Source: Candidatus Melainabacteria bacterium RIFCSPHIGHO2_02_FULL_34_12 (lineage in GTDB: Bacteria; Cyanobacteriota; Vampirovibrionia; 2-02-FULL-35-15). Taken from it: a DNA stretch of 64,000 nt. This document shows, in pieces, positions 6,189-56,420 of this stretch. Under the pieces are notes generated by a model, which worked only from the letters and a program-made list of their open reading frames with translations, made no database searches and had not been told where the DNA came from. The translations under genes were made by a program, and so were the position numbers. Each line of letters starts with the position of its first letter. The stretch's first letter is position 1. The DNA lies in contig MFRM01000005.1 of assembly GCA_001784555.1 (NCBI GenBank), forward strand, positions 99,802 to 163,801. Direction: 5' to 3'.

Positions 6189-7577
6189 ATGGCTGTAACT
6201 ACCCAGTTTAATGCTTTATTTTCCACCTCTGAAATCAAAGAACTTTTTGGATTTGAAATCCAGGGGTCTAATGAATTCTCACTTTCTACTGATTCAAGAT
6301 CAATAACAAAAGATCAAATTTTTATTCCCCTGTTCGGAGAAAAATTTGACGGACATGATTTTATAAATGATGTCATGGATAGAAATGTAAGGGCTTGCCA
6401 TGGCAAGCCCTTACCAGTGTTTTGTCAACAAGACAAATTATTTAAAGTGCAAGATAAATATAAATCAAACCTTATTCTTGTAGAAAATACACTTGAAGCT
6501 TATCAAAAACTAGCAAATTACCATAGAAAAAAACTAAAAGCAAAAGTTATTACTATCACCGGCAGCTCGGGAAAAACCACAGTAAAAGAACTTATTGCAT
6601 CTGTACTTTCACAAAAATATAAAGTTCATAAAACAGAAGCAAACTATAACAATGAAATCGGAGTTCCTAAAACCATTCTTGAAACCACACCAGATACGGA
6701 AGTGCTAGTGCTTGAACTAGCAATGAGAGCAAAAGGTGAAATCAGACTTTTATCTGAAATATCTGAACCAGACATTGCCATTATTATAAATGTTGGTTCT
6801 GCTCATATAGGACGACTTGGAAGCTTAAGTAACATCATAGAAGCTAAATGTGAAATATTTGAACATGTAAAAAAAGGTGGGATTGGGATTATACATAAGA
6901 ATGGACAATTAATTGATTATCTAAATACAAAAGATCTTAAAAATATAAATGACTTTATAAAATTTGATATTTCAGATTTAGAAGCCAAAGTTCTTTTTAA
7001 AGACGGTAAGTCAAAGTTTATTTTAGACGGAGAAGAATATTTCATTAATGCACAAGGCAAAACACATATTTTAAATTCAATCCTTGTCATAAAGCTTGCT
7101 AAAAAACTTGGCCTAAATAAGAATGAAATTCAAAATGGTCTTTCAAAATTTAAAATACCTGAAGGACGTGGTAATGTTCTTAAGATAAAGGATGAGGTGT
7201 ATATAATTGACGAATCTTATAATGCAAATCCAGATTCACTGAAGGCAGCAGTTTTAAATTTAGTTGATTCCTGGAGTGAGGACTATAAAAAAGTTTTAGT
7301 CATAGGCGAGCTGGCTGAGCTTGGAGAGCAGCAGGTGGGCTTATTAACTGAACTTGGCATATGGTTAAGAGATAAACCAATATACAAATTGATTACGGTG
7401 GGGACTAAACTTAATACGCTAGCCTCATCTTTAAGTTCTAAAAATGTTGCAAATGTTGCAAATACTGATGAGTGCTGTGCTATCTTAAATGATATTCTTG
7501 TCCCTAAAACAGTTGCACTTATAAAGGGCTCACATGTTGCAGGACTGAATAAGGTAATAAATTATTTTCTAAAATAA
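6189..7577 (+). CDS. murF: Mur ligase family, probably UDP-MurNAc-tripeptide--D-Ala-D-Ala ligase
   Basis: 462 aa; ATP-binding ITGSSGKTT motif, Mur ligase middle and C domains. Confidence 0.6.
   Translation: MAVTTQFNALFSTSEIKELFGFEIQGSNEFSLSTDSRSITKDQIFIPLFGEKFDGHDFINDVMDRNVRACHGKPLPVFCQQDKLFKVQDKYKSNLILVENTLEAYQKLANYHRKKLKAKVITITGSSGKTTVKELIASVLSQKYKVHKTEANYNNEIGVPKTILETTPDTEVLVLELAMRAKGEIRLLSEISEPDIAIIINVGSAHIGRLGSLSNIIEAKCEIFEHVKKGGIGIIHKNGQLIDYLNTKDLKNINDFIKFDISDLEAKVLFKDGKSKFILDGEEYFINAQGKTHILNSILVIKLAKKLGLNKNEIQNGLSKFKIPEGRGNVLKIKDEVYIIDESYNANPDSLKAAVLNLVDSWSEDYKKVLVIGELAELGEQQVGLLTELGIWLRDKPIYKLITVGTKLNTLASSLSSKNVANVANTDECCAILNDILVPKTVALIKGSHVAGLNKVINYFLK
6387..6414. repeat. 28-bp GTAG...CTAC-type palindromic element (perfect), in frame in murF
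   Basis: gtaagggcttgccatggcaagcccttac is its own reverse complement; encodes VRACHGKPL. Confidence 0.8.
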
Positions 7578-9679: not shown

Positions 9680-11479
9680 TTACTTCGGCTCAACCACTCT
9701 AATAGAAAGCTCTTTTAACTGTTTATCTGATACTTCACTGGGTGCTTCAGTAAGCGGGCAGCTGGCGTTTTGGGTTTTAGGGAATGCAATAACATCACGG
9801 ATAGATTTATTTCCTGTTAGCAGCATTACTAACCTGTCTAAACCCAGTGCCAGACCGCCATGTGGAGGTGCTCCTAAACTTAATGCATCCAGTAAAAATC
9901 CAAATTTATCTTTAGCAGTATTTTCATCCAGTCCTAATATTTTAAACACCTTGCTTTGAAGTTCCATATCGTGAATTCTTATGCTGCCACCGCCTATTTC
10001 AGTTCCGTTATAAACAATGTCATAAGCTGCTGCTTTGGCTACTTCTGGATTTGAATCTAATAAATGAATGTCTTCAGGTTTCGGAGAGGTAAACGGATGA
10101 TTTACTGAGTTTAGTCTTTTTTCCACTGGATCATATTCAAAGACTGGAAAGTTTACAAGCCAAGTCATAGCATGTTTAGTTTCATCAATGAGCCCGAGTT
10201 TTTCTCCCAGATGAAGTCTTAGTCTTCCTAATGCCTGAGCAACTATTTTTGGTTTGTCTGCCACAAAAAGTAAAGTATCACCAGATTTTACACCAGCTTT
10301 ATTTTTCATTTCATTTATTTCTTCATCTTTAAAAAATTTAACTATGGGTGAACTTACCTGACCGTCAGATTTAAATGTAATCCATGCAAGTCCTTTTGCC
10401 CCGAACTCTTTAGACATAGTGAGTGCTTTTAAATCATCCATTTCTTTTCTGGAATACTCAGATATTCCAGAAACACAGAGACATTTAACTTCTCCGTTTG
10501 ACTTTGCAATTTCACTAAATGACTTAAACTCACTTTTTGCCATTATGTCAGTAAGGTCTACAAACTCAAGGCTAAATCTAAGATCAGGTTTGTCTGAACC
10601 ATAAAGAGACATAGCTTTGTCATAGTCCATTCTGGGAAAGGGTTTGCTTAGTTTTATTCCAGCTACATTAAATGCACTTATCAAAACCTCTTCCACAGCA
10701 CCTATAACATCTTCCATATCAATAAATGACATCTCTATGTCTACCTGTGTAAATTCAGGCTGTCTGTCTGCTCTTAAATCTTCATCACGAAAGCACCTGG
10801 CGATTTGATAGTATTTCGGGAAGCCGCTTATCATGAAAAGTTGTTTAAAAAGCTGCGGTGACTGTGGCAGTGCAAAAAACTTGCCCGGCTGGACTCTGCT
10901 TGGGACCAGATAGTCCCTGGCGCCTTCAGGAGTGGCTTTAGTGAGAATAGGAGATTCCAGCTCATAAAACCCCAGATTATTTAAAGTGTTTCTAATTGCT
11001 TGTGTAATTTTATGCCGTGTAATAAAAGTTTTTTGCATTTTTTCTCTACGCAGATCTAAGAAGCGATATTTTAGTCTGACATTTTCATCTACATCTTCTG
11101 CCTGATCCAGCGTAAAAGGAAGCGGTCTTGATTTATTTAAAAGCTCTATCTCCGCAGGATACATTTCTATAGTACCGGTAGGAAGATTTGAGTTTTCAGT
11201 GCCTTGTGGGCGTTTAGTCACAGGACCTTTTACAATTACCACATATTCATTATGCAGATGTTCAAAAACTTTGTGTACTTCTTTATTCTTAGCCGGATCG
11301 GCTACTATCTGGAAGCGTCCAGAATGATCCCTAAGTTCAATAAAAATAATTCCACCAAGATCCCGCGTAGTGTCTACCCAGCCGCCTACTGTAATAGGTT
11401 TTCCAATATCTGATTCTTTTAATTCTCCGCAAAAATGAGAACGTTTTAATTTTGTTTTAGTTGTAACTTCGGTTGACAT
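9680..11479 (-). CDS. aspS: aspartate--tRNA ligase
   Basis: 599 aa bacterial-type; class II motifs [16 protein letters not shown] and [11 protein letters not shown] insertion domain. Confidence 0.9.
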
Positions 11480-11502: not shown

Positions 11503-12789
11503 TCACTCCAAAACCCTAATCACATTCTCTACCTGTTTCACAGCATTTAATTTCTTCATCTCAATAATTGCATTTTGTATTTTTTCTTCTTTTACTGAAT
11601 GAGTAAGTAGTGTAATTGATGCTGTACCGTCGTGGTTTGTGCCTCTTTGAGTAAGTGCATTTATGCTTACATCATATTTACCGCAAATAGTTCCAAGCTG
11701 TCCTACCACTCCAGGTTTATCTTCTGCTCTTACTCTTAAAAAATAACAGTTTACTGTTTCTGAAATAGGTTTTATTTTCGCATAATTTTTATGATGACAT
11801 GTAAGTTGAGGATTTGGCTCTCTTGAGGAAGAAAGTTGTGCCACAAGAAGATTTATATCACCCACTACTGAACTTGCAGTGGGTAATTCTCCTGCACCGC
11901 GTCCTATAAGTGTAAGTTCACCGACAAGATTTCCTTCCACCAGCACCCCGTTATTTACACCAAAAACAGATGCAAGCGTATTTGTATTTTTAATAAATGC
12001 AGGATGAACCCTTATGTCAATTTTTTTGTCTGGATCAATTTTTGCAAGACCGATAAGTTTTAACCTGTATCCGAGTTCCTCAGCAAGACTTATATCCTCT
12101 GGTGTAATTTTTTCAATTCCTTCTGTATACACTTCATTTATTTTTATTCTTTCGTGAAATGCAATGCTTGCAAGGATTGCAAGCTTATATGCAGCGTCTT
12201 TACCGGAAATATCATTGGTAGGATCAGGCTCAGCGTAACCCAGCTTTTGTGCATCTTTTAAGCACACATCAAAATCTATATTCTTATTTAGCATTTCGGT
12301 GAGAATATAGTTTGTAGTGCCGTTCAAAATCCCCATGATTTTTGAGAAAGTATTTGCACTTAGAGTTTGTTTAAGAGTATTTATTATAGGAATGCCGCCA
12401 CAGACACTGGCCTCAAACTGAATCTGTACGTTTTTTTCTCTAGCCAAATCAAAAAGCTCGGCGCCATGTGTAGCAATTAAATCTTTATTTGCTGTAACAA
12501 TATGTTTTTTGTTTTGAATGGCTTTAGTAATAAGCTCTTTTGCAGGATTTATTCCGCCGAGAACTTCTACAATAATTTCGATTTCTGGGTCATTGACGAT
12601 TTCGTTTAAGTTTGATGTTAGTAGAGACGTTGTATACAACGTCTCTACTGGCCTTTTTTTATTTATGTCTCTTACACCGATTTTTTTAATTTCAATGTAT
12701 GGATGATTGATCAGGGTTTTTATTACACCTGTACCGACAGTTCCAGCACCAAGCAGTCCGATTTTTATTTTTTTATTAGATTCCGGCAT
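11503..12789 (-). CDS. hom: homoserine dehydrogenase
   Basis: 428 aa; NAD-binding GLLGAGTVG, catalytic domain, C-terminal ACT domain. Confidence 0.8.
   Translation of the reverse strand: MPESNKKIKIGLLGAGTVGTGVIKTLINHPYIEIKKIGVRDINKKRPVETLYTTSLLTSNLNEIVNDPEIEIIVEVLGGINPAKELITKAIQNKKHIVTANKDLIATHGAELFDLAREKNVQIQFEASVCGGIPIINTLKQTLSANTFSKIMGILNGTTNYILTEMLNKNIDFDVCLKDAQKLGYAEPDPTNDISGKDAAYKLAILASIAFHERIKINEVYTEGIEKITPEDISLAEELGYRLKLIGLAKIDPDKKIDIRVHPAFIKNTNTLASVFGVNNGVLVEGNLVGELTLIGRGAGELPTASSVVGDINLLVAQLSSSREPNPQLTCHHKNYAKIKPISETVNCYFLRVRAEDKPGVVGQLGTICGKYDVSINALTQRGTNHDGTASITLLTHSVKEEKIQNAIIEMKKLNAVKQVENVIRVLE
12621..12648. repeat. 28-bp GTAG...CTAC palindromic element (perfect), in frame in hom
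   Basis: gtagagacgttgtatacaacgtctctac; encodes PVETLYTTSLL on the minus strand. Confidence 0.85.
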
Positions 12790-17390: not shown

Positions 17391-17398
17391 TCCCTTCC

Positions 17399-17426
17399 GT
17401 AGGCGGGGTCCCGGGATCCCGCCTAC
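17399..17426. repeat. 28-bp GTAG...CTAC palindromic element, intergenic hup/oxidoreductase
   Basis: gtaggcggggtcccgggatcccgcctac, near-perfect palindrome 8 bp after the hup stop; no U-tract follows. Confidence 0.8.
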
Positions 17427-17437
17427 GTGAGATCATT

Positions 17438-20532: not shown

Positions 20533-23286
20533 ATGAAGTTTTTAAAAATTAATTTAGTCTTTTTAGCCATTCTTGTTTCTGGTTTTTATTTATTATTCTT
20601 TCAAAGTAATATTTTCTCATTCTCAAAAGAATATTCTGACTTTGCTACCCCTGAAGAACTTATAACCAGAAATCAAATTCTTTCGATGCCATGGCAAAAA
20701 TTAAACGGGCCGTTTGGCGGACAAGGATATACGATAAGATTTAGTCCAAGCAACACAAATAAAATAATTGTTACTGACTCATTTGCAGGGATTCATGTTT
20801 CAAATGACAGAGGACTTACCTGGAATGAAAGTGATGAAGGAATAGATTCACGTTCTGGAAAGTCAGGAGATGCTGTTCCAGTTTTTGTCACCACCATAGA
20901 TCCAAATAATCCAAATAGAATATGGTGTGGTGTAAAAAACGCAATGGGAGTATTTCTTTCCACAGACGGAGGAATTACATGGCAGCATAAAGATAACGGC
21001 CTGCCTAGCGGAAGTGAGGTTGAAATAAGAGGGCTTGCAGTAAAGCCAGGTGATTCGAATACTGTCTTTGCAGCAGGAGATTTAGAAGAAATAGGTCCTA
21101 TTATGGGAGCATTCCAAAGAACACAAGGAATAGTTTACAGAACTACTGATGGCGGAGAAAACTGGACCCAGGTTTTATCCGGAGGCAATCTTTTTAAGGA
21201 CATAATAATTGATCCAAATAATCCTAATACAACTTATGTAGCAAGCGGATTTTTTGACAGACATCAGCTTGAAAAATTAGAAGGTGTATATAAAAGTACT
21301 GATGGCGGGACTGTATGGTCCCAGATAAATAATGGAATAAGAAATCTTTATGTCACAAATATAAAATTTGACCCGGAAAATCCAAATATAATTTGGGGAA
21401 CAACAGGAATGATTCCTCAGTTTGACACTGATGTTGAAAATCAAGACGGCGCAATTATTGTAACTAAAGATGCAGGAATGACCTGGACAGAATCTAAAAG
21501 ACAGCGTAACAGCGGTGCACCGCAAATTTATTCAGCACTGGGAATCAGCCCGACAAATTCAAATGTAATTTATGCAGGAGCATTTGGATTTTTTGTTAAA
21601 TCGACTGATGGCGGAATGACATGGACAGAGACTGGTTTTGGTCCGCTTGGATCAAATCCTGGACATCCGATAGATATTGAAGTAGATCCAGACAATGAAA
21701 ATATTGTTTATGTAGACAGTTATGTAGGAGGGGTTTTTAAATCTACAGACGGTGGAAAAACCTGGGTAACAAATGCATTTGGATATTCCGGATCTGAAAC
21801 AAGAGGAGTGGCTGTAAGCTCTGATAATAATAATGTTTTTGCTACATCCAGATCAGGCATATTTTTAAGCAAAGATAAAGGAATAAACTGGCTGCCAGTA
21901 GGACTTGGAGATATTAAGCTGGATGAGCTTCAAGCAGTTTCTCTGAATCCTATTGATAATAATAAAATCCTTCTTGGTGACAGTCAAAATGCAATGAATT
22001 CAATATTTCTTAGTGTTGATGGAGGAATGAGCTGGAAAACAGTTTTTATGCTTTTTAATGAAGATTTTTCAGCTCGCCCAAGCAGCACAGGTTTAGACGG
22101 AGAAATTGTTTTCACTGACATAAAATGGTCTAAGTCAAATCCAAATATTGCCATTGCTTCCTGTGTAAAAAAATCATTGTTTCACGACTTTGTTGACTCA
22201 ATCGGGTGGGGAACTTTTAAATCTGTAAATGGCGGAATGACATGGACAAATAAACAAAATGGAATCTCAGGATTTAAAAATACCTGGTCTCTTGATATAG
22301 ATCCTGCAAATGAAAATATTGTTTATGCAGCTACAAATGACTCAGGCATAGTAAAAAGTATTGATGGCGGAGAAAACTGGACTCAAATAAATAATGGCTT
22401 TGATAATGAAAAATCTTTTCATTCAATATCAATTTACTCTGCAAATACAATGGTGCTTTTGGCAGGAAGTGCTAACGGACAGATTTTTAGATCTGAAGAT
22501 AATGGAGAAAGCTGGACCCCTGTATTATCTGATGTGCGTGAAAACGATAACATTGTTTCAATTGTTTTTAATCCAGTAGCATCTACACATCAGGTTTATG
22601 CCGGCGCAAATGCAACCGGATTTTATGTATCTGGTGATGATGGAAATACCTGGACTCAATTTAATGACGGTTTATTAATTCGTGAATTAGAAAATCTGGC
22701 AGTTACACCGGACGGTTCTAGTGTTTATGCAGCAACAAATGGAGGGGGGATTTTCAGGCTTCCAATAACAGGAGGCAATTTAACCCTGACCAGAAACCAA
22801 ACTGAAATCCCAAGCAATGCAGGCATAGATGCTGAAAATAATACAACTGTATCAAGCTCATCTAGCAGTGGTGGAGAAAGCCATGAAACAAGCTCAGGTG
22901 GTGTCGATGTAAATGCAAACCCTGACGATTTTTCTTTTACACTAAGTGGCAAGGCAGCACATGGGATAAAAGTTTCTTCTAAAAAACCAACAAAAAGTTT
23001 TGTCATTCTTAGTCTAGATGAAAATACAATAAATACTTTTATTAACAAGAAGGTTTTAGTTTCATCAAATTTTTCCACTAATGCTGTAAAAATTAAGCCA
23101 CCCAGTTTTATAGTAAACAGTAAAAGAAACAAAATCAAAATTTTGATTTCTATTAAATCAAAAGACAGCCTGAAAGATATTATTACAGGTGAATTGCCAG
23201 AAGAAATTAAATTATCATTTAATCTTTTACTTCCAGGCACAGAAATAATTAAGCAAACAGAGATTCCCTTAACGTACGAAGAATAA
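20533..23286 (+). CDS. secreted BNR/Asp-box repeat protein (sortilin/Ycf48-like beta-propeller)
   Basis: 917 aa; N-terminal hydrophobic signal; >10 S/T-x-D-G-G-x-T-W Asp-box repeats. Confidence 0.7.
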   Translation: MKFLKINLVFLAILVSGFYLLFFQSNIFSFSKEYSDFATPEELITRNQILSMPWQKLNGPFGGQGYTIRFSPSNTNKIIVTDSFAGIHVSNDRGLTWNESDEGIDSRSGKSGDAVPVFVTTIDPNNPNRIWCGVKNAMGVFLSTDGGITWQHKDNGLPSGSEVEIRGLAVKPGDSNTVFAAGDLEEIGPIMGAFQRTQGIVYRTTDGGENWTQVLSGGNLFKDIIIDPNNPNTTYVASGFFDRHQLEKLEGVYKSTDGGTVWSQINNGIRNLYVTNIKFDPENPNIIWGTTGMIPQFDTDVENQDGAIIVTKDAGMTWTESKRQRNSGAPQIYSALGISPTNSNVIYAGAFGFFVKSTDGGMTWTETGFGPLGSNPGHPIDIEVDPDNENIVYVDSYVGGVFKSTDGGKTWVTNAFGYSGSETRGVAVSSDNNNVFATSRSGIFLSKDKGINWLPVGLGDIKLDELQAVSLNPIDNNKILLGDSQNAMNSIFLSVDGGMSWKTVFMLFNEDFSARPSSTGLDGEIVFTDIKWSKSNPNIAIASCVKKSLFHDFVDSIGWGTFKSVNGGMTWTNKQNGISGFKNTWSLDIDPANENIVYAATNDSGIVKSIDGGENWTQINNGFDNEKSFHSISIYSANTMVLLAGSANGQIFRSEDNGESWTPVLSDVRENDNIVSIVFNPVASTHQVYAGANATGFYVSGDDGNTWTQFNDGLLIRELENLAVTPDGSSVYAATNGGGIFRLPITGGNLTLTRNQTEIPSNAGIDAENNTTVSSSSSSGGESHETSSGGVDVNANPDDFSFTLSGKAAHGIKVSSKKPTKSFVILSLDENTINTFINKKVLVSSNFSTNAVKIKPPSFIVNSKRNKIKILISIKSKDSLKDIITGELPEEIKLSFNLLLPGTEIIKQTEIPLTYEE

Positions 23287-24756
23287 AATATCCTCTTCTA
23301 ATTTAATCCCTTTAATTTTTGCAAGCCCAGGCCACGTGTTTCGCCATCGTAGGGTTGAGGTTACCTCAACCCTGGCATGATCGGGAATCTCAAATTCATA
23401 CGTCGTTATGTCGGATTTACCTGCCATAATTCTTGTATCACTTGCAATAAAAACATTCCACCAATCAGGCGGTGGAATGTCTCTTATACCGGGCGCACCA
23501 CGGTGTGCCCCTACAAATCGCGTACCATATTCACTATATGTTTCGGAGAGAATCTTTGCAAATAATTTTCCTGGTTTGTTTTTTAAATTGCCTGCATAAA
23601 TTGGTAATTTTGGACCTTTGATTTGTACGGGTTGTAGAGACGGGGTTACCCCGTCTCTACGGTTTTTATATTTAACATCAATAACAAGAATTGCATTTCT
23701 CATCGGAGAACCTGTTGGGAAGCTATGACCGAAGTTGTTGTTTGAGACTTTTGCGGTGACGATTAGTATATTGTTGCCATTTGTTGAGACGCCCCGATGG
23801 GGCGTCTTTACGGTGATCATTAGATCAACATATTTCTTCCTAAACTCATGGGGATTGCTGCTCAAGAAACTATGACTATGAATCTGGTGGTAAGGACGTG
23901 ATTTTTGTTTTATATTTGGATTATCAACGATTGAAAAACGCTCTGTCAGAGCGTCTCTACCGGGTTTCATATGACAACTTTGACACTGCACACCTTTTTT
24001 TGCTGCCGGACTATTTGCCCATTCTGTAAATGTTGAGTAAATTTGTACATTTCCATTTGAGCCATCATGGCATTTAGCACAGATGAGACTTGTTTTATAA
24101 AGCGAATTATATTTTAATTCCTCATTTTCGCCGTATTTTTGCTCTGTTTCATCATCAATTCGTTCTATTTTTATTGAGTCCTTAATTGGTCCAAACCTTA
24201 TATCCTTCATTCCTTTGCATGTTCGTAAAATATTTAAACCTTCGACTCCTTTTTTAAATGGATTTTGATCTACACTTTCAATCTTATGACAGAAATCACA
24301 GGAGATACCGTTTGTTTTTTTTGCATTGCGTTTTCTTAAATCAATATCATTAAGACGCCCTGCCGGGGCGTCTCTACCGGATAATGTTGCTTCAGGGTTG
24401 TGGCAGAGAGCACAATTCCCATTTTTATCAGGGTGATCTTCTTTAAATCGTTTATAAACTTCTAAAAAGAAAGGATTGTTTTGGCTCATGGAATGTTTAT
24501 CATCTTTCCATTCTTTGTAATAAGCTATGTGACATGAAGAACAATTTTTTAAAAGTAATTCCCCTTCTTTACTGGATGTGTTTGGGTCAAACCATTTATA
24601 GACGGTGCATGTATCGTTGTGTGTTGTAGAAGCGTATTCCAATACGCCTCTACTTTGTTTTGGTGATGAAGCAATGACGTGAAACGTTTGTGAAATAAAA
24701 ATAAATGACAAAATCGTTGTAGAAATTAAAACAATAATCTTTTTATAAATAGACAT
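23269..24756 (-). CDS. pentaheme c-type cytochrome (NrfA-like size; family uncertain)
   Basis: 495 aa; signal peptide; five CxxCH motifs (CSSCH, CALCH, CDFCH, CAKCH, CQSCH); contains six palindromic-element copies. Confidence 0.65.
   Translation of the reverse strand: MSIYKKIIVLISTTILSFIFISQTFHVIASSPKQSRGVLEYASTTHNDTCTVYKWFDPNTSSKEGELLLKNCSSCHIAYYKEWKDDKHSMSQNNPFFLEVYKRFKEDHPDKNGNCALCHNPEATLSGRDAPAGRLNDIDLRKRNAKKTNGISCDFCHKIESVDQNPFKKGVEGLNILRTCKGMKDIRFGPIKDSIKIERIDDETEQKYGENEELKYNSLYKTSLICAKCHDGSNGNVQIYSTFTEWANSPAAKKGVQCQSCHMKPGRDALTERFSIVDNPNIKQKSRPYHQIHSHSFLSSNPHEFRKKYVDLMITVKTPHRGVSTNGNNILIVTAKVSNNNFGHSFPTGSPMRNAILVIDVKYKNRRDGVTPSLQPVQIKGPKLPIYAGNLKNKPGKLFAKILSETYSEYGTRFVGAHRGAPGIRDIPPPDWWNVFIASDTRIMAGKSDITTYEFEIPDHARVEVTSTLRWRNTWPGLAKIKGIKLEEDILFFVR
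23349..23375. repeat. GTAG...CTAC-family palindromic element in cytochrome gene
   Basis: gtagggttgaggttacctcaaccctgg; 11-bp arms; encodes ARVEVTSTLR. Confidence 0.65.
23634..23660. repeat. GTAG...CTAC palindromic element (27 bp) in cytochrome gene
   Basis: gtagagacggggttaccccgtctctac; encodes RRDGVTPSL. Confidence 0.85.
23784..23811. repeat. GTAG...CTAC-family palindromic element in cytochrome gene
   Basis: ttgagacgccccgatggggcgtctttac; encodes VKTPHRGVS. Confidence 0.7.
23945..23960. repeat. partial or degenerate element (right terminus gtctctac) in cytochrome gene
   Basis: gtcagagcgtctctac; encodes GRDALTE. Confidence 0.4.
24351..24377. repeat. GTAG...CTAC-family palindromic element in cytochrome gene
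   Basis: taagacgccctgccggggcgtctctac; encodes GRDAPAGRL. Confidence 0.75.
24636..24663. repeat. GTAG...CTAC palindromic element in cytochrome gene
   Basis: gtagaagcgtattccaatacgcctctac (2 mismatches); encodes SRGVLEYAS. Confidence 0.7.
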
Positions 24757-27779: not shown

Positions 27780-27798
27780 GATTTAATTTTACACGAAT

Positions 27799-27827
27799 GT
27801 AGAGACATTGCGGCGCAATGTCTCTAC
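27799..27827. repeat. 29-bp GTAG...CTAC palindromic element, intergenic; supplies TAG stop of nagB-like gene
   Basis: gtagagacattgcggcgcaatgtctctac; 20 bp upstream of aconitase start. Confidence 0.85.
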
Positions 27828-28630
27828 AAATATTTTGCTGCGTCTTTATCAGTAATCACAATAAGATTTTTATGTAGTAATAATGCACTTGCAGATGCTT
27901 TTTTTATATTTACTTTTTTATCTCTAAATGCTAACTGAATTGACTTTGCTTTTTCTTCTCCATATGCAATAAGAAGTGCCTTTCTGGATTTTAAAATGTC
28001 TTGTATACCCAAGGTGATGCCCTTTACAGGGGCTTGCTGCAGCAAGCCCCTACATCGGATCTTTTTTATAACTATTGGATGTAGATCCACCACTCTCATT
28101 TTTGAATCTATTGATGACTTCCCTGTAGTGTTATAAGCAATATGTGGATCATACTCAGCTCCAATCCCCAGAATTATTAAATCAATTCCTTTATTTTTTC
28201 TTATGAACTCATTAGCTTTTTTTATTGTTTCTTTTGGATTTTTTGATCCATCCATTAGAAAAACATTCTTTGGATTTACTGTTTTAAATAAAGGTTTTAG
28301 TTTGTCTCTTATTTCAAGATTAAAACTAATCGAGGAATCAGGTTTTACCCCTAGATTTTCATCAATCTGAAAAAGTTTTACTTTTTTCCATTTGTTTGGG
28401 TTTAAACTAACATCTTTTGAGATTAATTTATATAAATCATCAATGGTTTTTCCTGCTGCAAGACCTATAAGCGAATCCGGCTTTTTTAATATTTGGTTTT
28501 TAATTACTTCAAAGGCTTTTTTATCCCCTGATTTTTTGTCTTTTGTAATTAATATTTTTCTTTTCATTTGTTTGGCAAATCTTTTATAAAGACGGTAAGA
28601 TAGAGCAATGATTTTTATTATATTTTGCAC
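27824..28630 (-). CDS. glucosamine-6-phosphate deaminase / 6-phosphogluconolactonase family (NagB/Pgl)
   Basis: 268 aa; LIILGIGAEYDPHIAYN resembles the NagB/Pgl GxGxDGH motif. Confidence 0.55.
   Translation of the reverse strand: MQNIIKIIALSYRLYKRFAKQMKRKILITKDKKSGDKKAFEVIKNQILKKPDSLIGLAAGKTIDDLYKLISKDVSLNPNKWKKVKLFQIDENLGVKPDSSISFNLEIRDKLKPLFKTVNPKNVFLMDGSKNPKETIKKANEFIRKNKGIDLIILGIGAEYDPHIAYNTTGKSSIDSKMRVVDLHPIVIKKIRCRGLLQQAPVKGITLGIQDILKSRKALLIAYGEEKAKSIQLAFRDKKVNIKKASASALLLHKNLIVITDKDAAKYL
28026..28053. repeat. GTAG...CTAC-family element (GGGGCTTGC subfamily) in nagB-like gene
   Basis: acaggggcttgctgcagcaagcccctac; encodes CRGLLQQAPVKG. Confidence 0.7.
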
Positions 28631-31339: not shown

Positions 31340-32794
31340 TTAATTTTCTTTGTTCTTTTTTGGTTTAAAACCCTTTAAGAGGCTGCTTTGTGGCTTTATT
31401 TGTGATCTTTGCATATTATTTGGCATAACATTTCCAGGATTCATCATGCCTTTTCCCTGTCCGCTAAACATACCCATCATTTTTTTCATTTTTGAGAATT
31501 CACTGACTAATTGATCTGCATCTTTTTCTTTTAGTCCGGCCCCGCGTGCAATTCTTCTTTTTCTGCTTAGATTTAAAAGAGATGGTTTCATTTTTTCTTC
31601 TTTACTCATGCTTTGAATAAGGGATTTAAACTTTTTCATTTTTACTTCACCTTCAGAAAGTAATTTTTCCTGAGTGTTTTTATCTATGTTTACTCCCATA
31701 TTCCCAAGCATTCCACCCATGCCCATCATATTAAATATATTTGAAAAATCACCCATCTTTGACATCATGTTTTGAGCAGAAAGAAAAGATTCAAAATTAA
31801 AATCACCTAACAATTGTTTTTCTATTTCTTTAGCCTCGTCTTCTTTTATTTTTTCCTGGGCTTGTTCTACCAGAGTTAGTACATCACCCATTCCAAGGAT
31901 TCTAGATGCCATGCGCTCAGGATAAAACTCCTGAAGATCGTCAATTTTTTCTCCAACACCTGCAAACTTTACTCGTTTTCCTGTTTCCTCTACTACAGAA
32001 AGAGCGGCGCCGCCTCTGGCATCACCGTCCAGCTTTGTAAGAATAATTCCTGTAATTCCAATCTGTGTGTTAAATGCAGCTCCTATATTTGCTGCTTCCT
32101 GACCCAACATAGAATCTATTACCAAAAGTTTTTCATCTGGTTCAACAGTTCTGTCTATAAGCAAAAGCTCAGCCATCATTTCTGTATCGATCTGTAATCT
32201 CCCTGCGCTGTCAAGGATGACTACGTCGTGGTTATTTTTTTTTGCGTGGTCAATAGCGTTTTGCGCCAGTAGGGGCGTATGGCCATACGCCCCTATATCG
32301 CCTGGCATTTGATATACTGCTATGCCAATTTGATTTCCTAGTATATTTAATTGCTCCACAGCAGCAGGACGTTTTAAATCTAATGGCACTAAAAGCGGGT
32401 TTTTACCTTTTTTCTTTAAAAAGTTTGCCAGCTTTGCACAGGTAGTAGTTTTACCGGCACCCTGAAGACCGAGCATTAATATTACAGATGGCGTAGCATT
32501 GATGTTGAGACGCTCCATTGGGGTGTCTGTACCGCCAAGAAGATTTGTAAGCTCATCACTAATTATTTTTATAAAAAACTCGCTGGGAGAAACTCCCTTT
32601 AAAACTTCCTGACCAATTGCTTTTTCACGTACCTTATTTGTAAATGTTTTAATGGCTTTTAAACTAACGTCAGCATCTATAAGTGCTCTTTTTATCTCAC
32701 GTATGGCAATATCAATATTTTCTTCAGTAATTTTTGACTGAGAGCGAAGAGATTTAAAGATGTTTTGGAGATTTTCTGTTAATTGATCGAACAT
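31340..32794 (-). CDS. ffh: signal recognition particle protein Ffh
   Basis: 484 aa; GLQGAGKTT, DTAGR, KLDGDARGG, M-domain Met-rich tail. Confidence 0.9.
   Translation of the reverse strand: MFDQLTENLQNIFKSLRSQSKITEENIDIAIREIKRALIDADVSLKAIKTFTNKVREKAIGQEVLKGVSPSEFFIKIISDELTNLLGGTDTPMERLNINATPSVILMLGLQGAGKTTTCAKLANFLKKKGKNPLLVPLDLKRPAAVEQLNILGNQIGIAVYQMPGDIGAYGHTPLLAQNAIDHAKKNNHDVVILDSAGRLQIDTEMMAELLLIDRTVEPDEKLLVIDSMLGQEAANIGAAFNTQIGITGIILTKLDGDARGGAALSVVEETGKRVKFAGVGEKIDDLQEFYPERMASRILGMGDVLTLVEQAQEKIKEDEAKEIEKQLLGDFNFESFLSAQNMMSKMGDFSNIFNMMGMGGMLGNMGVNIDKNTQEKLLSEGEVKMKKFKSLIQSMSKEEKMKPSLLNLSRKRRIARGAGLKEKDADQLVSEFSKMKKMMGMFSGQGKGMMNPGNVMPNNMQRSQIKPQSSLLKGFKPKKNKEN
32269..32296. repeat. 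GTAG...CTAC palindromic element (GGGGCGTA subfamily) in ffh
   Basis: gtaggggcgtatggccatacgcccctat; encodes GDIGAYGHTPLL. Confidence 0.8.
32505..32532. repeat. degenerate element in ffh, related to copy at 23784
   Basis: ttgagacgctccattggggtgtctgtac; encodes GTDTPMERL. Confidence 0.5.
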
Positions 32795-35050: not shown

Positions 35051-36596
35051 CGGTTACGAAGTGTTTTTCAATAACCTCTTTATTTAAAAATCCCTGAATA
35101 TTGTCCCATGGCAGTTTTATTTTCTCATCCCACTTTTTAAAAATAAAATAATCTGCATTTATTTTTTCTTCTTTCAATGCTTTATTAAAGCTGCCAAGAG
35201 TACTTCCATATTTATATGCTTTTACAAGTGCTTTATTTATGCTTCTGTCTCCGCGTGATATAAGTGCCTGAATAAGTGACCATCTGTAACTTTCTGCTCT
35301 AAAATCCACTCCTATTTGATGCAGTTCTTTTGAATAATATTTTAATTTTTTTTCAGCGTCTTTATCTACTCCATACCACTGGAATGGTGTACCTGCTTTT
35401 GGTACAAAGACAGAACTTCCCCAGACTAGCTTTTTAGTTTTGTTTTTTAATTTAATTTCTTTCAAGAAATTAACAGTTTCTTTTAAATCACTATCGGTTT
35501 CATGTGGTAATCCAACCATTCCATAAAGTTTTATAGATTTAAAACCAGCATTATAAATAGTCTCAATAGAGTTTGTTATGGTCTGGTTGCTGACTTTTTT
35601 ATTTATTATCTCGCGCAGTCTTTCTGAACCTGTTTCAACTGCCATGGTTATTGACTTTGCGCCTAATTCAAAAAGTCCGTTCGCAAGATTTTTAGATATA
35701 GTATCTGCTCTTACTGATGCAATCTGGACATGGATTTTATTTTCCTTGTTTTGTCCATTGAGATATTCAATCAATCCTTCAAATTCCGGATGTTGTGTAA
35801 CCGATGCTCCGAGCAACCCGATTTTATTTGTATGTTTTAAACCAAAATCAATTACTGGAATTAAACTTTCTTTTAAATCAGGTGTACGGAAAGGAAGTGA
35901 ACCGTAACTAGCTAAACAAAACCTGCAAAGCTCAGGACAGCTGCGTACTACCTCGACAATAAAAGTATCAGGCCAAACGGAATTTGGGGTAAGGATGGAT
36001 GAGGAGGTAAGGTTACCACGATTTGTTTTTCGTTTTGTTGTAGGGAACAGTCGCAACTGTTCCCTACAAGAGGGAACATAAACACCATCTAATTTTGCCA
36101 AGGCATTTAATTTTTCCTCACGGTTTAAATCTTTTATTTCAACAATTTTATTTATAAAACCTTCTGCAATTTCTTCTAAATCGCCAGTCAGAAAGAAATC
36201 AAAATTATCACAAAATGGCTCAGGATTTGCATTTGGGACCTGTCCGCCACAAAATATAATAGGATCCTTTTCGCCTCTTTCATTTGAATATAAAGGAATA
36301 TTATTTTTTTCTAACATTGAAAAAATATTTTTATAATCCAGCTCCCACGAAAATGAAAAACCTACGTATGAGGGTCTAGCATTGAAACCTGATTTACCGG
36401 AATTTTCTTCTATATCCGTAAACCACCGTATGGCTTTTAAATCCTCGTTCTGATTAAATAACTTCCATGCAGTTTGAAAACCCAGACTTGCCATACCGAC
36501 AGAGTATATATTTGGAAATGCAATTGCCATGAGGCTTGCATCTCTTTGCTTAGCAGGTATGTTAATTATGATTTTTTCTTCTTGAAATAAAGACAT
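35016..36596 (-). CDS. B12-binding-domain radical SAM protein
   Basis: 526 aa; CPELCRFC (CxxxCxxC) radical SAM motif; N-terminal B12-binding-like domain. Confidence 0.7.
   Translation of the reverse strand: MSLFQEEKIIINIPAKQRDASLMAIAFPNIYSVGMASLGFQTAWKLFNQNEDLKAIRWFTDIEENSGKSGFNARPSYVGFSFSWELDYKNIFSMLEKNNIPLYSNERGEKDPIIFCGGQVPNANPEPFCDNFDFFLTGDLEEIAEGFINKIVEIKDLNREEKLNALAKLDGVYVPSCREQLRLFPTTKRKTNRGNLTSSSILTPNSVWPDTFIVEVVRSCPELCRFCLASYGSLPFRTPDLKESLIPVIDFGLKHTNKIGLLGASVTQHPEFEGLIEYLNGQNKENKIHVQIASVRADTISKNLANGLFELGAKSITMAVETGSERLREIINKKVSNQTITNSIETIYNAGFKSIKLYGMVGLPHETDSDLKETVNFLKEIKLKNKTKKLVWGSSVFVPKAGTPFQWYGVDKDAEKKLKYYSKELHQIGVDFRAESYRWSLIQALISRGDRSINKALVKAYKYGSTLGSFNKALKEEKINADYFIFKKWDEKIKLPWDNIQGFLNKEVIEKHFVTAKRGSEGFYNS
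36040..36067. repeat. 28-bp GTAG...CTAC palindromic element (perfect) in radical SAM gene
   Basis: gtagggaacagtcgcaactgttccctac; sister of copy at 42210. Confidence 0.85.
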
Positions 36597-40617: not shown

Positions 40618-41907
40618 ATGGGTTTACAAATCAAAGAAACTGATACTATAACACAACTCAAATCTGCAAAAGCTGCATCACGTAAGCTTGCTAAAGCTTC
40701 AAATGAAGAAAAAAATAAAGCACTTAATTTAATTGCTGATGAGTTACTTTTATCTAAAGATGTAATACTAAGTGCAAATAAAAAAGATCTCGAAGCAGGT
40801 AAGAACAGTAATCTTTCAAATGCACTTCTAGACAGGCTTATGTTGGATGAGAAAAGACTTTCAGGCATGGCAGAGGGGATAAAAAAAGTACTAGCCCAAA
40901 AAGATCCTGTGGGTAATAAAATTGCCTCATGGAAACACCCTAAAGGCATGATGATTACAAAAGTCTCTGTGCCGCTGGGTGTAATATGTGTAATTTATGA
41001 AGCCAGACCTAATGTCACTACTGATGCAGTTTCACTAGCCGTAAAATCAGGAAATGCCATTATTCTTCGCGGAAGTCAGCATGCTACAGAATCAAACCAA
41101 GCAATTGTGGATTGCATACATCGTGCATTGAAAAATCTCGTAGGGGCGTACCATGGTACGCCCTTGTTGAATGAGGGAATTGTTCAATTCATCGCCTCAA
41201 AAGACCGTGAAGAAACCATAAAAATCCTTGAAGCAAAAGATTATGTAGATCTTGTTATTCCAAGAGGCGGTGAAGACCTAAAAGATTTTGTTTTAAAACA
41301 TTCTAAAATACCGGTGATAGGAGCAGGCGGCGGTACATGTCATTTATTTATAGATGAAAGTGCAAAAGAAAATATGGCAGTAGATATTGCATTTAATGCT
41401 AAAACCCAAAGACCTGGGGTTTGTAATGCCATTGAAACTGTTTTAGTCCATAAAAATATAGCTAAAAATATTCTTCCTAAATTACAAGCAAAATTAAATG
41501 AAAAAAAAGTAGAGATATTTGCATGTGACAGAACAGGAAAAATTATTTCAGATGTAAAACCTGCAACAGAAGAAGACTGGTATAAAGAATACCTGGATTT
41601 AAAAGTAGCAGTGAAAGTTGTAGATTCACTGGATGAGGCTATTGAACATATAAATAAATACGGCACTCGTCATTCAGAATCCATAATTACAGAAAATAAA
41701 GAAAACGCTTCTAAATTTCAGGATGAAGTCGATGCTGCTTGTGTTTATGTAAATGCCAGCACACGTTTTACTGACGGCGAAGAATTTGGATTTGGATCTG
41801 AGATAGGAATTTCCACGCAAAAATTACATGCACGTGGACCAATTGCACTTGAGCAGCTTGTGACTTATAAATATTTAATTTCAGGTGAAGGACAGACTAG
41901 GACATGA
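40618..41907 (+). CDS. proA: gamma-glutamyl phosphate reductase
   Basis: 429 aa; aldehyde dehydrogenase fold, VIYEARPNVT and C-terminal QKLHARGP. Confidence 0.85.
   Translation: MGLQIKETDTITQLKSAKAASRKLAKASNEEKNKALNLIADELLLSKDVILSANKKDLEAGKNSNLSNALLDRLMLDEKRLSGMAEGIKKVLAQKDPVGNKIASWKHPKGMMITKVSVPLGVICVIYEARPNVTTDAVSLAVKSGNAIILRGSQHATESNQAIVDCIHRALKNLVGAYHGTPLLNEGIVQFIASKDREETIKILEAKDYVDLVIPRGGEDLKDFVLKHSKIPVIGAGGGTCHLFIDESAKENMAVDIAFNAKTQRPGVCNAIETVLVHKNIAKNILPKLQAKLNEKKVEIFACDRTGKIISDVKPATEEDWYKEYLDLKVAVKVVDSLDEAIEHINKYGTRHSESIITENKENASKFQDEVDAACVYVNASTRFTDGEEFGFGSEIGISTQKLHARGPIALEQLVTYKYLISGEGQTRT
41140..41166. repeat. GTAG...CTAC-family element (GGGGCGTA subfamily) in proA
   Basis: gtaggggcgtaccatggtacgcccttg; 20-bp perfect palindromic core; encodes LVGAYHGTPLL. 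Confidence 0.8.
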
Positions 41908-42461
41908 TGAATCGGCAAACTGCCTCACGGCCAGGTAGCCGTATAGGTCTTTTTGGCGGTACCTTTAATCCTATTCACAATGGGCATTTACAGATGGCTG
42001 ATAAGGCACTTAAAGAATATAAGCTTTCAAAGGTGTATTTTATTCCGTGTGGAATTCCGCCTCATAAAAAAATTAAAGATCTTCTTCCTGCAAAGCTCAG
42101 GTATAAACTTGTGAAAGATGCTATTAAAGGAAAAAAATATTTCAAGGTTCTGGATATAGAAGTTAAAAAAAAGAAACCATGTTATACGATTGATACCGTT
42201 AAAACCCTTGTAGGGACCAGTCGCGACTGGTCCCTACTGTATTTTTTAATCGGACAGGATGAATTTGAAAACCTAAAAACCTGGAATAAACCAAATGAAC
42301 TTGCAAAGCTAGTCACCTTTCTGGTTTTGCCAAGAAGCCTAAAAAAGATTAAACCACCTAAAATAAAAAATCTACAATGGTCACCTGTTCATACAAAGTT
42401 AATTGATATATCAAGTACTGAAATCAGAAGAAATATCAAACCACCGCACAAGCCCCGTTAG
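41904..42461 (+). CDS. nadD: nicotinate-nucleotide adenylyltransferase
   Basis: 185 aa; [12 protein letters not shown]; start overlaps proA stop. Confidence 0.8.
42210..42237. repeat. 28-bp GTAG...CTAC palindromic element (perfect) in nadD
   Basis: gtagggaccagtcgcgactggtccctac; encodes [11 protein letters not shown]. Confidence 0.85.
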
Positions 42462-43695
42462 CAGCTTTTTTTAATTCTTCTACCTTATCTAATTCTTCCC
42501 ATGGAAGATTTAGATCCAGTCTGCCAAAGTGTCCATATGATGCAGTATTTCTATAAAATACGCCCTTATTTAATTTCGGGAGATTTTGCATATTGAACTT
42601 TTTAATAATTGCAAGTGGTCTTAAGTCAAAAACCTGATTTACTATGTCGCATAGAACAGTGTCTTTAGCTTTTCCTGTGCCGAAAGTTGAAACACTTATA
42701 GAGATTGGTTTTGCTACGCCGATAGCATATGAAACCTGTACCTCACAGTGTCTGGCAAGTCCTGCAGCTACAATGTTTTTTGCAATGTACCTGGCTGCAT
42801 AACATGCGGATCGGTCTACTTTTGTAGGATCTTTTCCTGAAAATGCACCGCCACCGTGTCTGGCATATCCTCCGTAAGTATCAACTATAATTTTTCTTCC
42901 TGTAAGACCAGCATCTCCCTGAGGTCCGCCGATTACAAATCGTCCCGAAGGATTAATAAAATACTTAGTTTCATTATCAATTAAATGACTAAGCTGTTCA
43001 ACAACCGGCTTAATGACAAATTCCCTCATATCAGCTTCAATAAACTTTTGAAGATCGCTATTTTCAGTTTTTCCATTTATTTTTGCTGCATGTTGGGTGG
43101 ATATTACAAGAGTGTCAATTCTTTTTGGCATCCCTTTTTCATCATATTCAATGGTTACCTGTGTTTTACCGTCAGGTCTGAGATATGGAAGAGTACCTTT
43201 TTTTCTAACCTGTGAAAGCTTCAGTGCAAGTTTTTGGGCAAGGCTTATAGGAAGTGGCATAAGTTCAGGTGTTTCATCACATGCAAATCCGAACATTAAT
43301 CCCTGATCTCCTGCTCCAAGCTTATCTATTTCATCGCTTGAATCTTCATCTCTGTGTTCTTTTGCCGTAGTTACTCCCTGACTAATATCTGGAGATTGTT
43401 CTTTAACACAGACAATAACACCACATGTATGTGCATCAAAACCACCAGCATCAGGACCTGCATAGCCAATTTCTTCAATGGTTTTTCTTGCAAGTGTATC
43501 AAAATCAATGCGTGTCTTTGATGTAATTTCTCCACCAACTACAACTAGCCCAGTGGTAGCATATGTTTCACAAGCTACACGGCTTTTAGGATCACCAGCC
43601 AGTGCTGCGTCCAGCACTGCATCAGATATTTGATCACATAATTTATCCGGATGTCCTTCAGTTACTGATTCTGATGTAAACAATCGTTTTGCCAT
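42436..43695 (-). CDS. metK: S-adenosylmethionine synthetase
   Basis: 419 aa; [28 protein letters not shown]. Confidence 0.9.
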
Positions 43696-43699
43696 AATA

Positions 43700-43885
43700 A
43701 GAATTCTCCTTCTTTAATTGAAAGCGATGTTACTTGCTTTAAAGTTTTATCGCTCATCTATCTGGAATTAGCACCGTTGCAACCACTGAAATATAAACTT
43801 CTTTTGTATCTCTGTTTTATCTCTGCGGTTCAGGTTGCTGTAGCTTCGTTGGGCCAGTCCCTCTGCTACTCTGGATAAGCCTGTT
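43700..43885 (-). promoter_or_regulatory. SAM-I (S-box) riboswitch in metK leader
   Basis: minus strand CTTATCCAGAGTAGCAGAGGGACTGGCCCAACGAAGCTACAGCAACC...GGTGCTAATTCCAGATAGATGAGCGATAA matches the S-box core; extended P3; SD AAGGAG before ATG. Confidence 0.75.
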
Positions 43886-46832: not shown

Positions 46833-46877
46833 GTCATTGCGAGAAGTCCGCCTGAGGCGGACGACGAAGCAATCTCA
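46833..46877. repeat. TGTCATTGCGAG...GAAGCAATC family copy B (left arm of MITE-like inverted pair)
   Basis: tgtcattgcgagaagtccgcctgaggcggacgacgaagcaatctca; internal palindrome gtccgcctgaggcggac. Confidence 0.65.
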
Positions 46878-46926
46878 TATTGCGATTAAGCTTAAGGAAG
46901 GTTTATTATTACCGTTATTTGCGTTG

Positions 46927-46966
46927 TGAGATTGCTTCACCCGCCTAAGGCGGGTTCGCAATGACA
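46927..46966. repeat. TGTCATTGCGAG...GAAGCAATC family copy C (inverted right arm)
   Basis: tgagattgcttcacccgcctaaggcgggttcgcaatgaca is the reverse complement of copy B with a variant core; ends 8 bp before the stop of the 912-aa gene. Confidence 0.65.
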
Positions 46967-53924: not shown

Positions 53925-53935
53925 GAGAACAATTA

Positions 53936-53963
53936 GTAGAGCCGCGATTAATCGCGGCTCTAC
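53936..53963. repeat. 28-bp GTAG...CTAC palindromic element (perfect) between tRNA-Ala and sigma factor 3' ends
   Basis: gtagagccgcgattaatcgcggctctac is its own reverse complement; T-rich flanks on both strands, so a possible bidirectional terminator. Confidence 0.85.
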
Positions 53964-53967
53964 TGTC

Positions 53968-55947: not shown

Positions 55948-56391
55948 ATGAAAAGTATAGACTCCGAAAATCAAATTTCTTGTTTAGTGGATTATGGCAT
56001 TGTTTATTCAAAAAGAGATATGATTAGAATTTTAAGAGATCTGGATCGTGTTGAATATATAGATATGATTGATAATCTTTCTGTAGCAAAAGGCGAAGGT
56101 TTTGTAATTGAAGTTTATGCAAATTCATATGACTCAACCATAGTGTTTAATAACAGACTTCATATTAATGTTAATGGCTTTGACTTTCTGAAAATAAAAA
56201 CTACCCCTGAAAAAATTATTGAACTTATTTCTGGTCACAGAATAATAAGATTAAAACCACTTACAAATATTTTAAAATCAAACCAAGCAGCAATAGAAGA
56301 AGAAATTGATGAACAAAGAATTGCTCTTGCCAGCCAGTTTGGCTGTGATAATGAAGTAGAGATGGATTATACGGATCAGGGGAATTTATGA
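55948..56391 (+). CDS. hypothetical protein
   Basis: 147 aa; SD aagga upstream. Confidence 0.4.
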   Translation: MKSIDSENQISCLVDYGIVYSKRDMIRILRDLDRVEYIDMIDNLSVAKGEGFVIEVYANSYDSTIVFNNRLHINVNGFDFLKIKTTPEKIIELISGHRIIRLKPLTNILKSNQAAIEEEIDEQRIALASQFGCDNEVEMDYTDQGNL

Positions 56392-56392
56392 C

Positions 56393-56420
56393 GATAGAGA
56401 CAGGATCACCCTGTCTCTAC
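56393..56420. repeat. 28-bp GTAG...CTAC palindromic element, intergenic; supplies TAG stop of scpB
   Basis: gatagagacaggatcaccctgtctctac; starts 2 bp after the TGA of the upstream plus-strand gene. Confidence 0.8.

Follow-up and report, generated by a model that had tools for sequence, protein, structure and literature searches.

Quentin et al. (2018, BMC Genomics 19:475, PMC6006769) associated subclass 2.4 of the TnpAREP/RAYT proteins (Bertels group 4) with 'double foot' REPs, whose 5' foot is GT[AG]G and whose 3' foot is C[TC]AC. The proteins of this subclass carry the motifs NH[IFV]H, WQ and YIxNNP, their hosts are Cyanobacteria, Bacteroidetes and members of scattered phyla, and in-frame REPs, inserted between the HuH and Tyr motifs of the tnpAREP gene itself, have already been described for them (PMC6006769). 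The GTAG-tagged REP super-family, which includes the cyanobacterial GTAG-12, -15 and -16, was described by Di Nocera, De Gregorio and Rocco (2013, BMC Genomics 14:522, PMC3733652). According to that report, TAG stop codons are known to arise from the termini of GTAG REPs, intragenic copies encode extra residues, and Rickettsia palindromic elements (RPEs) are mentioned alongside. It also places REPs typically at most 20 bp from the 3' end of an ORF in a convergent or tandem arrangement, where they are presumed to act as RNA elements (PMC3733652).

We analyzed a 64-kb stretch of DNA (referred to as the window) from an uncultured, non-photosynthetic melainabacterium, in which short palindromes with GTAG feet are dispersed mostly within genes and provide the TAG stop codon of two genes. 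We are confident that these palindromes are double-foot REPs of RAYT subclass 2.4, and that stop donation was an incidental by-product of insertion and purifying selection, with no remodelling of the C-termini. The family is a known system in a new host lineage, and it extends the double-foot REP/RAYT subclass 2.4 to Melainabacteria, with variants identical to those of Nostocales plasmids. In particular, the long hairpin, the presence of both feet, the REP within the RAYT gene and, very probably, an associated Y1 HUH protein with its motifs in the same genome were similar to the described subclass 2.4 system, whereas the host and the location of the copies were different, as approximately 80% of the window copies lie in frame in housekeeping genes. 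Compared with the description of GTAG-tagged REPs, the window elements are likewise short GC-rich GTAG palindromes whose intragenic copies code for extra residues; in contrast, the tag of GTAG-tagged REPs is unpaired at one end and the elements are mostly extragenic and often dimers, while the window copies have mirrored tags, are single and are mostly intragenic. The predominantly extragenic location of classical REP, REPIN and BIME elements was not found among the window copies, and neither was their arrangement in inverted doublets or clusters. The genome is one in which palindromes that are called 'extragenic' are about 80% intragenic.

RPEs, which were reportedly described by Ogata et al. 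in 2000, are palindromic, lie in frame in housekeeping protein genes and are tolerated in surface loops. They are approximately 100-150 bp long, lack a GTAG foot and are not known to be associated with a RAYT. The window elements resemble RPEs as in-frame palindromes in housekeeping genes but not in size or consensus, as the window elements measure 27-31 nt and have GTAG feet. The small dispersed repeats (SDRs) of Nostocaceae, which Elhai et al. are said to have reported in 2008, have a length of 21-27 nt, are apparently mobile and are reportedly absent outside Nostocaceae. The window family is similar to SDRs in that both are very small, apparently mobile cyanobacterial repeats, and exact copies of the window family are present in plasmids of Nostocales.

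Copies were identified by a hairpin search and by inspection of half-sites, which revealed approximately 19 copies of 24-32 nt in the window. The feet have the form GTAG(A/G)G...C(T/C)CTAC; intact copies, 27-31 nt long, carry GTAGAG or GTAGGG at one end and CTCTAC or CCCTAC at the other, and decayed copies show one or two changes. The centre differs among copies and is self-complementary within each. Across copies, the stem contained 12-15 bp and the loop 0-5 nt, with a DNA dG of -9.6 to -16.2 kcal/mol and z values of -5.3 to -9.0. The window copies have the short hairpin expected of REPs, with a stem of 7-20 paired nt and a small loop, as well as a 5' foot, GT[AG]G, that is mirrored on the 3' side by the reverse complement, C[TC]AC. 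The word GTAGAGAC occurred 12 times in the window against 0.82 expected, and none of 100 shuffles reached 12. The family is dispersed and multi-copy, a second contig adding three copies in 20.5 kb, and all window copies are singletons, the nearest pair lying about 150 bp apart within one gene. When Rfam was applied to the window at gathering thresholds, two tRNAs and a SAM riboswitch were detected and the palindromes were covered by no family; the riboswitch (RF00162, 67 bits) is located at 43751-43881 on the minus strand, upstream of the S-adenosylmethionine synthetase gene (42436-43695). A full-text literature search for the literal GTAGAGAC/GTCTCTAC returned unrelated primer lists only.

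Fifteen of the 19 copies are intragenic, two overlap stop codons and two are intergenic, within a window whose coding fraction is 0.92. As assigned without strand, the intragenic copies begin with one in frame 0 at 1400-1428, with a degenerate 3' foot, in the epimerase gene (947-1888), followed by frame 0 copies in the Mur ligase gene (GTAAGGGCTTGCCATGGCAAGCCCTTAC, 6387-6414) and the homoserine dehydrogenase gene (AGTAGAGACGTTGTATACAACGTCTCTACT, 12620-12649). Six copies lie in the multihaem cytochrome gene (23269-24756): a REP-like copy with degenerate feet at 23350-23375, GTAGAGACGGGGTTACCCCGTCTCTAC in frame 1 at 23634-23660, GTTGAGACGCCCCGATGGGGCGTCTTTAC in frame 0 at 23783-23811, two decayed copies in frame 1 at 23933-23960 and 24349-24377, and GTAGAAGCGTATTCCAATACGCCTCTAC in frame 1 at 24626-24653. 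This gene, on the minus strand, encodes a multihaem-cytochrome-like protein of 495 aa, and its six REP copies or relics account for most of the length difference from its orthologues. A frame 1 copy inside the nagB-like gene (GTAGGGGCTTGCTGCAGCAAGCCCCTGTA on the minus strand, 28025-28053) lies in a loop whose length varies among orthologues. Two copies were found in ffh (SRP54), of which GTAGGGGCGTATGGCCATACGCCCCTAT at 32269-32296 is in frame 0 and a decayed one at 32504-32532 is in frame 1. The remaining intragenic copies lie in the radical-SAM gene (TTGTAGGGAACAGTCGCAACTGTTCCCTACAA, 36038-36069, frame 1), for which a different REP is present at the orthologous site of L016, in the aldehyde dehydrogenase gene ((G)TAGGGGCGTACCATGGTACGCCCTTGT, 41141-41168, frame 0) and in the nucleotidyltransferase (CTP_transf_like) gene (GTAGGGACCAGTCGCGACTGGTCCCTAC, 42210-42237, frame 0). 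The intergenic copies are CGTAGGCGGGGTCCCGGGATCCCGCCTACG (17398-17427), between the HU gene and the GFO_IDH oxidoreductase gene, and AGTAGAGCCGCGATTAATCGCGGCTCTACT (53935-53964), between the tRNA-Ala and sigma-70 genes. The former is a 77%-GC variant, CGTAGGCGGGG...CCCGCCTACG, with a start codon 10 nt downstream; a relative of this variant was observed at L019 4035-4064, in frame in a radical-SAM gene (peptide RRRGRASS).

The first of the two stop-donating copies is located at 27798-27828, where the plus strand reads TGTAGAGACATTGCG-g-CGCAATGTCTCTACA, so that 15 + 15 bases show perfect complementarity. Its minus-strand GTAG foot forms the stop codon of the nagB-like gene (27824-28567, minus strand), which encodes a 247-aa member of the glucosamine-6-P deaminase family (PF01182) that ends in ...AAKYL. 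On the minus strand, the 3' end of this ORF reads ...AAA TAT TTG TAG AGA C (...KYL*), and the TAG is the complement of 27824-27826, within the GTCTCTAC arm (27820-27827). The second copy, at 56394-56420 (aTAGAGACAGG atcac CCTGTCTCTAC), provides through its minus-strand foot the stop codon of scpB (56417-57160, minus strand), which encodes the 247-aa SMC-Scp complex subunit B ending in ...EQPQNVL. Here the 3' end reads ...AAC GTA TTG TAG AGA C (...NVL*), the TAG (56417-56419) lies within GTCTCTAC at 56413-56420, and the opposite arm (56394-56401) is ATAGAGAC, with one mismatch. Both gene calls were backed by NCBIfam and Pfam (glucosamine-6-phosphate deaminase family; TIGR00281 ScpB above cut-off), and TTGTAGAGAC is common to the two cases. 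The initial annotation had placed both TAG codons inside element arms, and this was borne out at each gene: the TAG stops of the nagB-like gene and scpB are made of element nucleotides. A candidate third donor, the gene at 52358-53671 (ACG-TAG-AGAT), was rejected, as no convincing palindrome follows its stop.

As single-stranded DNA, the hairpins at the two stops had dG values of -14.2 (nagB-stop copy) and -9.6 kcal/mol (scpB-stop copy) and z values of -9.0 and -6.1, and none of 200 shuffles folded as well as either. The intercistronic spacer between nagB and aconitase holds the nagB-stop copy, which is followed 18 nt downstream by the aconitase start codon. The stops of scpB and a 147-aa ORF (55948-56391) are convergent and separated by a 25-nt spacer, all of which is taken up by the scpB copy. 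Two stable hairpins in such positions could have been kept for a function in the RNA, where they would stabilize the mRNA 3' end, mark a processing site or form a terminator-like element, in which case the stop overlap would reflect selection for a hairpin at the gene end; the 3'-end location and presumed RNA nature of REPs in PMC3733652 point the same way. We nevertheless regard this explanation as unlikely. The T/U run of an intrinsic terminator was absent after the hairpin at both stops, where the mRNA strand continues with ATTCGTGTAAAA and TCGTCATAAATT; an RNA role would be implausible for the 15 intragenic copies; and relatives lack the hairpin at both positions.

The reading frames of the intragenic copies were as the initial annotation had given them, namely the two frames without TAG: seven copies read GTA-GAG or GTA-GGG (peptides VET...SL) and eight read xGT-AGA or xGT-AGG (peptides RD/RG...S[TL]), while the xxG-TAG frame was used by the two stop copies only. 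The annotation had taken this bias as a trace of purifying selection, an argument that we found to be circular, because an ORF cannot hold an in-frame TAG. By definition, a third-frame copy with an intact GTAG closes the ORF, and intragenic copies are therefore confined to the other two frames. These two open frames were equally used, at 7:8 in the window and 36:33 among the 136 metagenomic copies listed.

With random placement of 19 elements, the probability of at least two coincidences between a foot and a stop was 1.3e-4. A fairer null is the share of all TAG trinucleotides that are gene stops. In the window, 1.0% of 1479 TAGs are gene stops, which gives 0.25-0.28 expected donors for 26 foot TAGs against two observed (P≈0.03). 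For the metagenome sample, the expectation was built from per-GC-bin base rates of stop TAGs, and six stop donors were found against approximately nine expected (5.3 + 1.0 + 2.7) among the 136 copies listed from at least 120 loci. All six were in contigs with a GC content of at least 0.52, a bin in which 7.8% of TAGs are preceded by 100 or more codons without a stop. Since long stop-free stretches are common at high GC, these metagenome donors are no evidence of enrichment. The suggested enrichment of the TAG frame at 3' ends was thus marginal in the window and absent among the metagenomic copies listed, and stop donation is not generally enriched.

To compare the two C-termini, we used orthologues that included those of seven related genomes (aconitase 78-83% identical), whose loci were taken with 10-kb flanks. 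The hairpin was not found at the nagB-like and scpB stop positions in the relatives examined. An element-free NagB-like orthologue (L014) ends in ...GGA AAA TAT TTA TAA (GKYL*), at the same last residue as AKYL-TAG in the window, and the remaining NagB-like orthologues end 0-5 residues from the window end point. An element-free ScpB orthologue (L012) ends in EQPVAG-TAA, one residue shorter than the window protein with EQPQNVL-TAG. Measured past the YFRL motif, the ScpB tail has 48 aa in the window, and 114 orthologues have a median of 45 and an interquartile range of 41-49. The claim that insertion had remodelled the C-termini did not survive this comparison of ScpB and NagB-like C-terminal lengths, which showed no detectable remodelling: an orthologue without the element ends at the same residue for NagB, which is the outcome that the initial annotation had itself named as refuting, and within one residue for ScpB, and the ScpB tail is within the orthologue range. 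Judged from orthologue sequences that are 60-80% identical, neither protein is detectably remodelled, and a change of 0-3 residues would be compatible with the comparison.

It appears very unlikely from these results that the NagB-like and ScpB C-termini were truncated or remodelled by TAG-frame insertions, with the frame distribution as a record of purifying selection. Both stops are indeed element-derived, the last ScpB residues are QNVL in the window as opposed to EQPVAG in L012, the ScpB tail is hypervariable among orthologues, and the window shows a mild excess of stop donors. However, these points are set against the shared KYL end of the element-free L014 protein, a ScpB tail of ordinary length, a circular frame argument and the lack of enrichment among the 136 further copies listed. 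The earlier interpretation was right as to the element-derived stops and the structured repeat in frame, and it failed on the frame argument and on remodelling. Stop donation as such is published and an expected by-product, and neither protein was detectably changed here.

The TAG stops might instead have existed before the elements, which inserted beside them, so that (G)TAG would be derived from the target, as with the target tetranucleotide of IS200/IS605, and the gene would have donated the foot. Three of seven element-free NagB orthologues end in TAG (L017, L019 and L020), and TTGTAGAGAC is shared by both window cases. Moreover, the ScpB of L011 ends in QQQNVS-TAG-AGAC, at the same codon as the window protein, and retains the element's 5' half but no 3' arm. 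In contrast, TAA is the stop codon of the orthologues whose ends match the window protein exactly or to within one residue (L014 nagB and L012 scpB), and the intragenic and intergenic copies carry both feet as a symmetric unit between flanks that are otherwise unrelated. On balance, a pre-existing TAG target is quite unlikely. At the L011 site (1573-1600), the scpB stop reads TCG-TAG-AGACAT with the REP 5' half only, and the downstream gene order is unlike that of the window; from the half-element and the changed gene order, a rearrangement breakpoint appears to lie within the element.

Donation of the stop by an inserted double-foot REP remains our preferred explanation. The seven relatives carry 0-3 such hairpins per ~20 kb as compared with 13 in the corresponding window region, which indicates that the family expanded in the window lineage. 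Groundwater metagenome contigs were 99.5-100% identical to the window, and no presence/absence polymorphism of a REP was seen among the near-identical strain contigs L001-L010. Apparent differences of 100 nt in strain scaffolds (L002 1791-1801 and L009 1522-1532) were N-run scaffolding joins with duplicated flanks and were discarded as not being biological indels. Compared with distant PDB homologues, the REP-coded stretches showed near-zero length change and looked like replacements. Compared with close relatives, the REP sites are length-variable loops, and the shortest orthologues are 4-9 residues shorter; given this length variation among close relatives, we retained the description 'insertion into permissive loops'.

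At the radical-SAM site, the window carries GTAGGGAACAGTTGCGACTGTTCCCTAC and L016 carries GTAGGGGCTTGTTGCAACAAGCCCCTAC. Different REP variants were likewise present at orthologous loops in L014-L020 for the radical-SAM gene, both ffh sites, the internal nagB site and the cytochrome gene, with feet that were alike and self-complementary centres that were not (window 36038-36069, 32269-32296, 32504-32532, 28025-28053 and 23783-23811). L019 carries an identical variant, GTAAGGGCTTACCATGGTAAGCCCC, in both ffh and nagB. These observations suggest recurrent insertion at a few permissive sites or replacement of one REP by another. A more specific proposal is that double-foot REPs are mainly in-frame coding insertions here and that resident REPs are favoured targets of the subclass 2.4 RAYT, which would replace them or home into them, as opposed to a scarcity of permissive sites left by selection; we consider this possible but doubtful. 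If true, these genomes would present empty, filled and replaced sites as a natural series, and the mechanism of REP dissemination might be deduced from it.

Palindromes that differ in the centre while staying perfectly complementary, and that differ between genomes at orthologous sites, could also have formed in place by template-switch mutation (quasi-palindrome correction) with no mobile copying. This is extremely unlikely, as full-length variants recur identically at unrelated loci and contigs (the GCGATTAATCGC centre at least 10 times and the GCAAAATTTTGC centre at least 8 times), one variant is present in both ffh and nagB of L019, the window copy at 23634 is the same as the REP in a sister MAG's RAYT gene, and the feet are conserved in a family that is tightly tied to a RAYT gene. 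In-place formation, an RNA-level role and a pre-existing TAG target are each less well supported than spread by a RAYT.

A metagenome scan with the pattern GTAGAGACR-N7-11-YGTCTCTAC yielded at least 120 loci, with 136 copies listed. Among the matches listed, 88 of the 136 copies were perfect 28-nt palindromes, and the recurring centres were those named above, GCGATTAATCGC and GCAAAATTTTGC. The perfect 28-nt GTAGAGAC-N12-GTCTCTAC palindromes among the matches listed (L025-L144) were observed in contigs with a GC content of 0.29-0.66. At 13 of 120 loci among the matches listed, the REP was located inside an ORF of 190-230 aa with the motifs KYRI..RL..WDY..YFVTICT, MPNHIHGI and FAWQxRFYDHIIR..YIxNNP. 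These 13 RAYT genes with an in-frame REP are in L028, L030, L031, L047, L049, L065, L079, L081, L087, L097, L107, L137 and L142. Members of this ORF family matched Pfam PF01797 (Y1_Tnp) above the gathering score and the NCBIfam entry 'REP-associated tyrosine transposase' with E values of 1e-12 to 1e-18, and their homologues carry the database name 'REP element-mobilizing transposase RayT'. A Pfam scan of the RAYT-like ORF at L028 8246-8899 gave no match because it is interrupted by REP-coded inserts, whereas shorter homologues match PF01797 and NF047646. In 83 of 120 homologues, a REP-coded peptide was found just after the HUH motif. The named hosts of RAYT homologues are Roizmanbacteria (CPR), Ignavibacteria, Bacteroidota, Nitrospirota, Omnitrophota and Cyanobacteria; with the same palindrome foot on contigs with a GC content of 0.29-0.66, this indicates that the 8-nt foot is conserved across very distant hosts. 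The variant GTAGAGACGCGATTAATCGCGTCTCTAC was found with 100% identity in Calothrix and Kovacikia plasmids and near-identically in Nostoc and Trichormus, and 17 of the 18 records that it matched were from Cyanobacteria.

A RAYT gene was not found within the 64-kb window. The window ScpB has 100% identity to a protein of 'Candidatus Melainabacteria bacterium RIFCSPHIGHO2_02_FULL_34...'. The RAYT protein P0250 (OGI20681.1) and the window ScpB (OGI20470.1) share a MAG name, an accession block and assemblies, and by these P0250 is very probably encoded in the same genome as the window, on a different contig. P0250 contains the motifs PNHLHGI, FWQ and YIRNNP and matched PF01797 with 29.9 bits (cut-off 23) and NF047646 with an E value of 2.6e-17, which is below the 80-bit curated cut-off of that entry; its similarity to the solved E. 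coli TnpAREP was weak (E=0.13). Its gene (10001-10573 of L148) carries the in-frame REP TGTAGGGGCGGGGTTACCCCGCCCCTACA at 10307-10335, and this internal copy is its only REP, without flanking REPs in the 20 kb examined. The REP lies in frame between HuH and Tyr in P0250, in the sister-MAG RAYT P0147 and in all 13 RAYT genes among the loci listed. The conserved feet, the dispersed identical variants and the tight association with a Y1 HUH gene are consistent with a family mobilized by a RAYT.

PMC6006769 and PMC8266576 cite work on the E. coli TnpAREP that suggests how a RAYT would bind and cleave REP hairpins. By analogy with such characterized enzymes, the RAYT of this genome would recognize the hairpin and the GTAG foot on single-stranded DNA, cleave and rejoin it, and thereby spread copies. 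In a genome that is 92% coding, most surviving copies would lie within genes, where they would persist only in the two stop-free frames and in loops able to accommodate 7-10 additional residues; a copy in the third frame would end translation at its own TAG and could be retained only if it had landed at the extreme 3' end of a gene, by replacing the native stop. We propose such a replacement for the nagB-like gene and scpB, with purifying selection presumably removing disruptive copies. All surviving copies observed are either intragenic, in stop-free frames and variable loops, or located at gene ends or in intergenic DNA. We infer that mobility was catalyzed by the RAYT, and likewise in which direction each event ran and what part selection played. 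Annotation of such genomes should be made with caution, as inserts of 9-10 residues (VET..SL and RD..ST) and some TAG stops are derived from REPs.

A finding that is new here concerns the sister-MAG RAYT gene (P0147), which carries the in-frame REP GTAGAGACGGGGTTACCCCGTCTCTAC at L145 8108-8134. This copy is identical, base for base, to the window cytochrome copy at 23634-23660. We also observed a second, unrelated palindromic repeat family, CGAAGCAATCTC...GAGATTGCTTCG, which is present once in the window at 46866-46938 and, in relatives, lies in frame in variable loops (L014, internal to nagB; L020, cytochrome gene and nagB).
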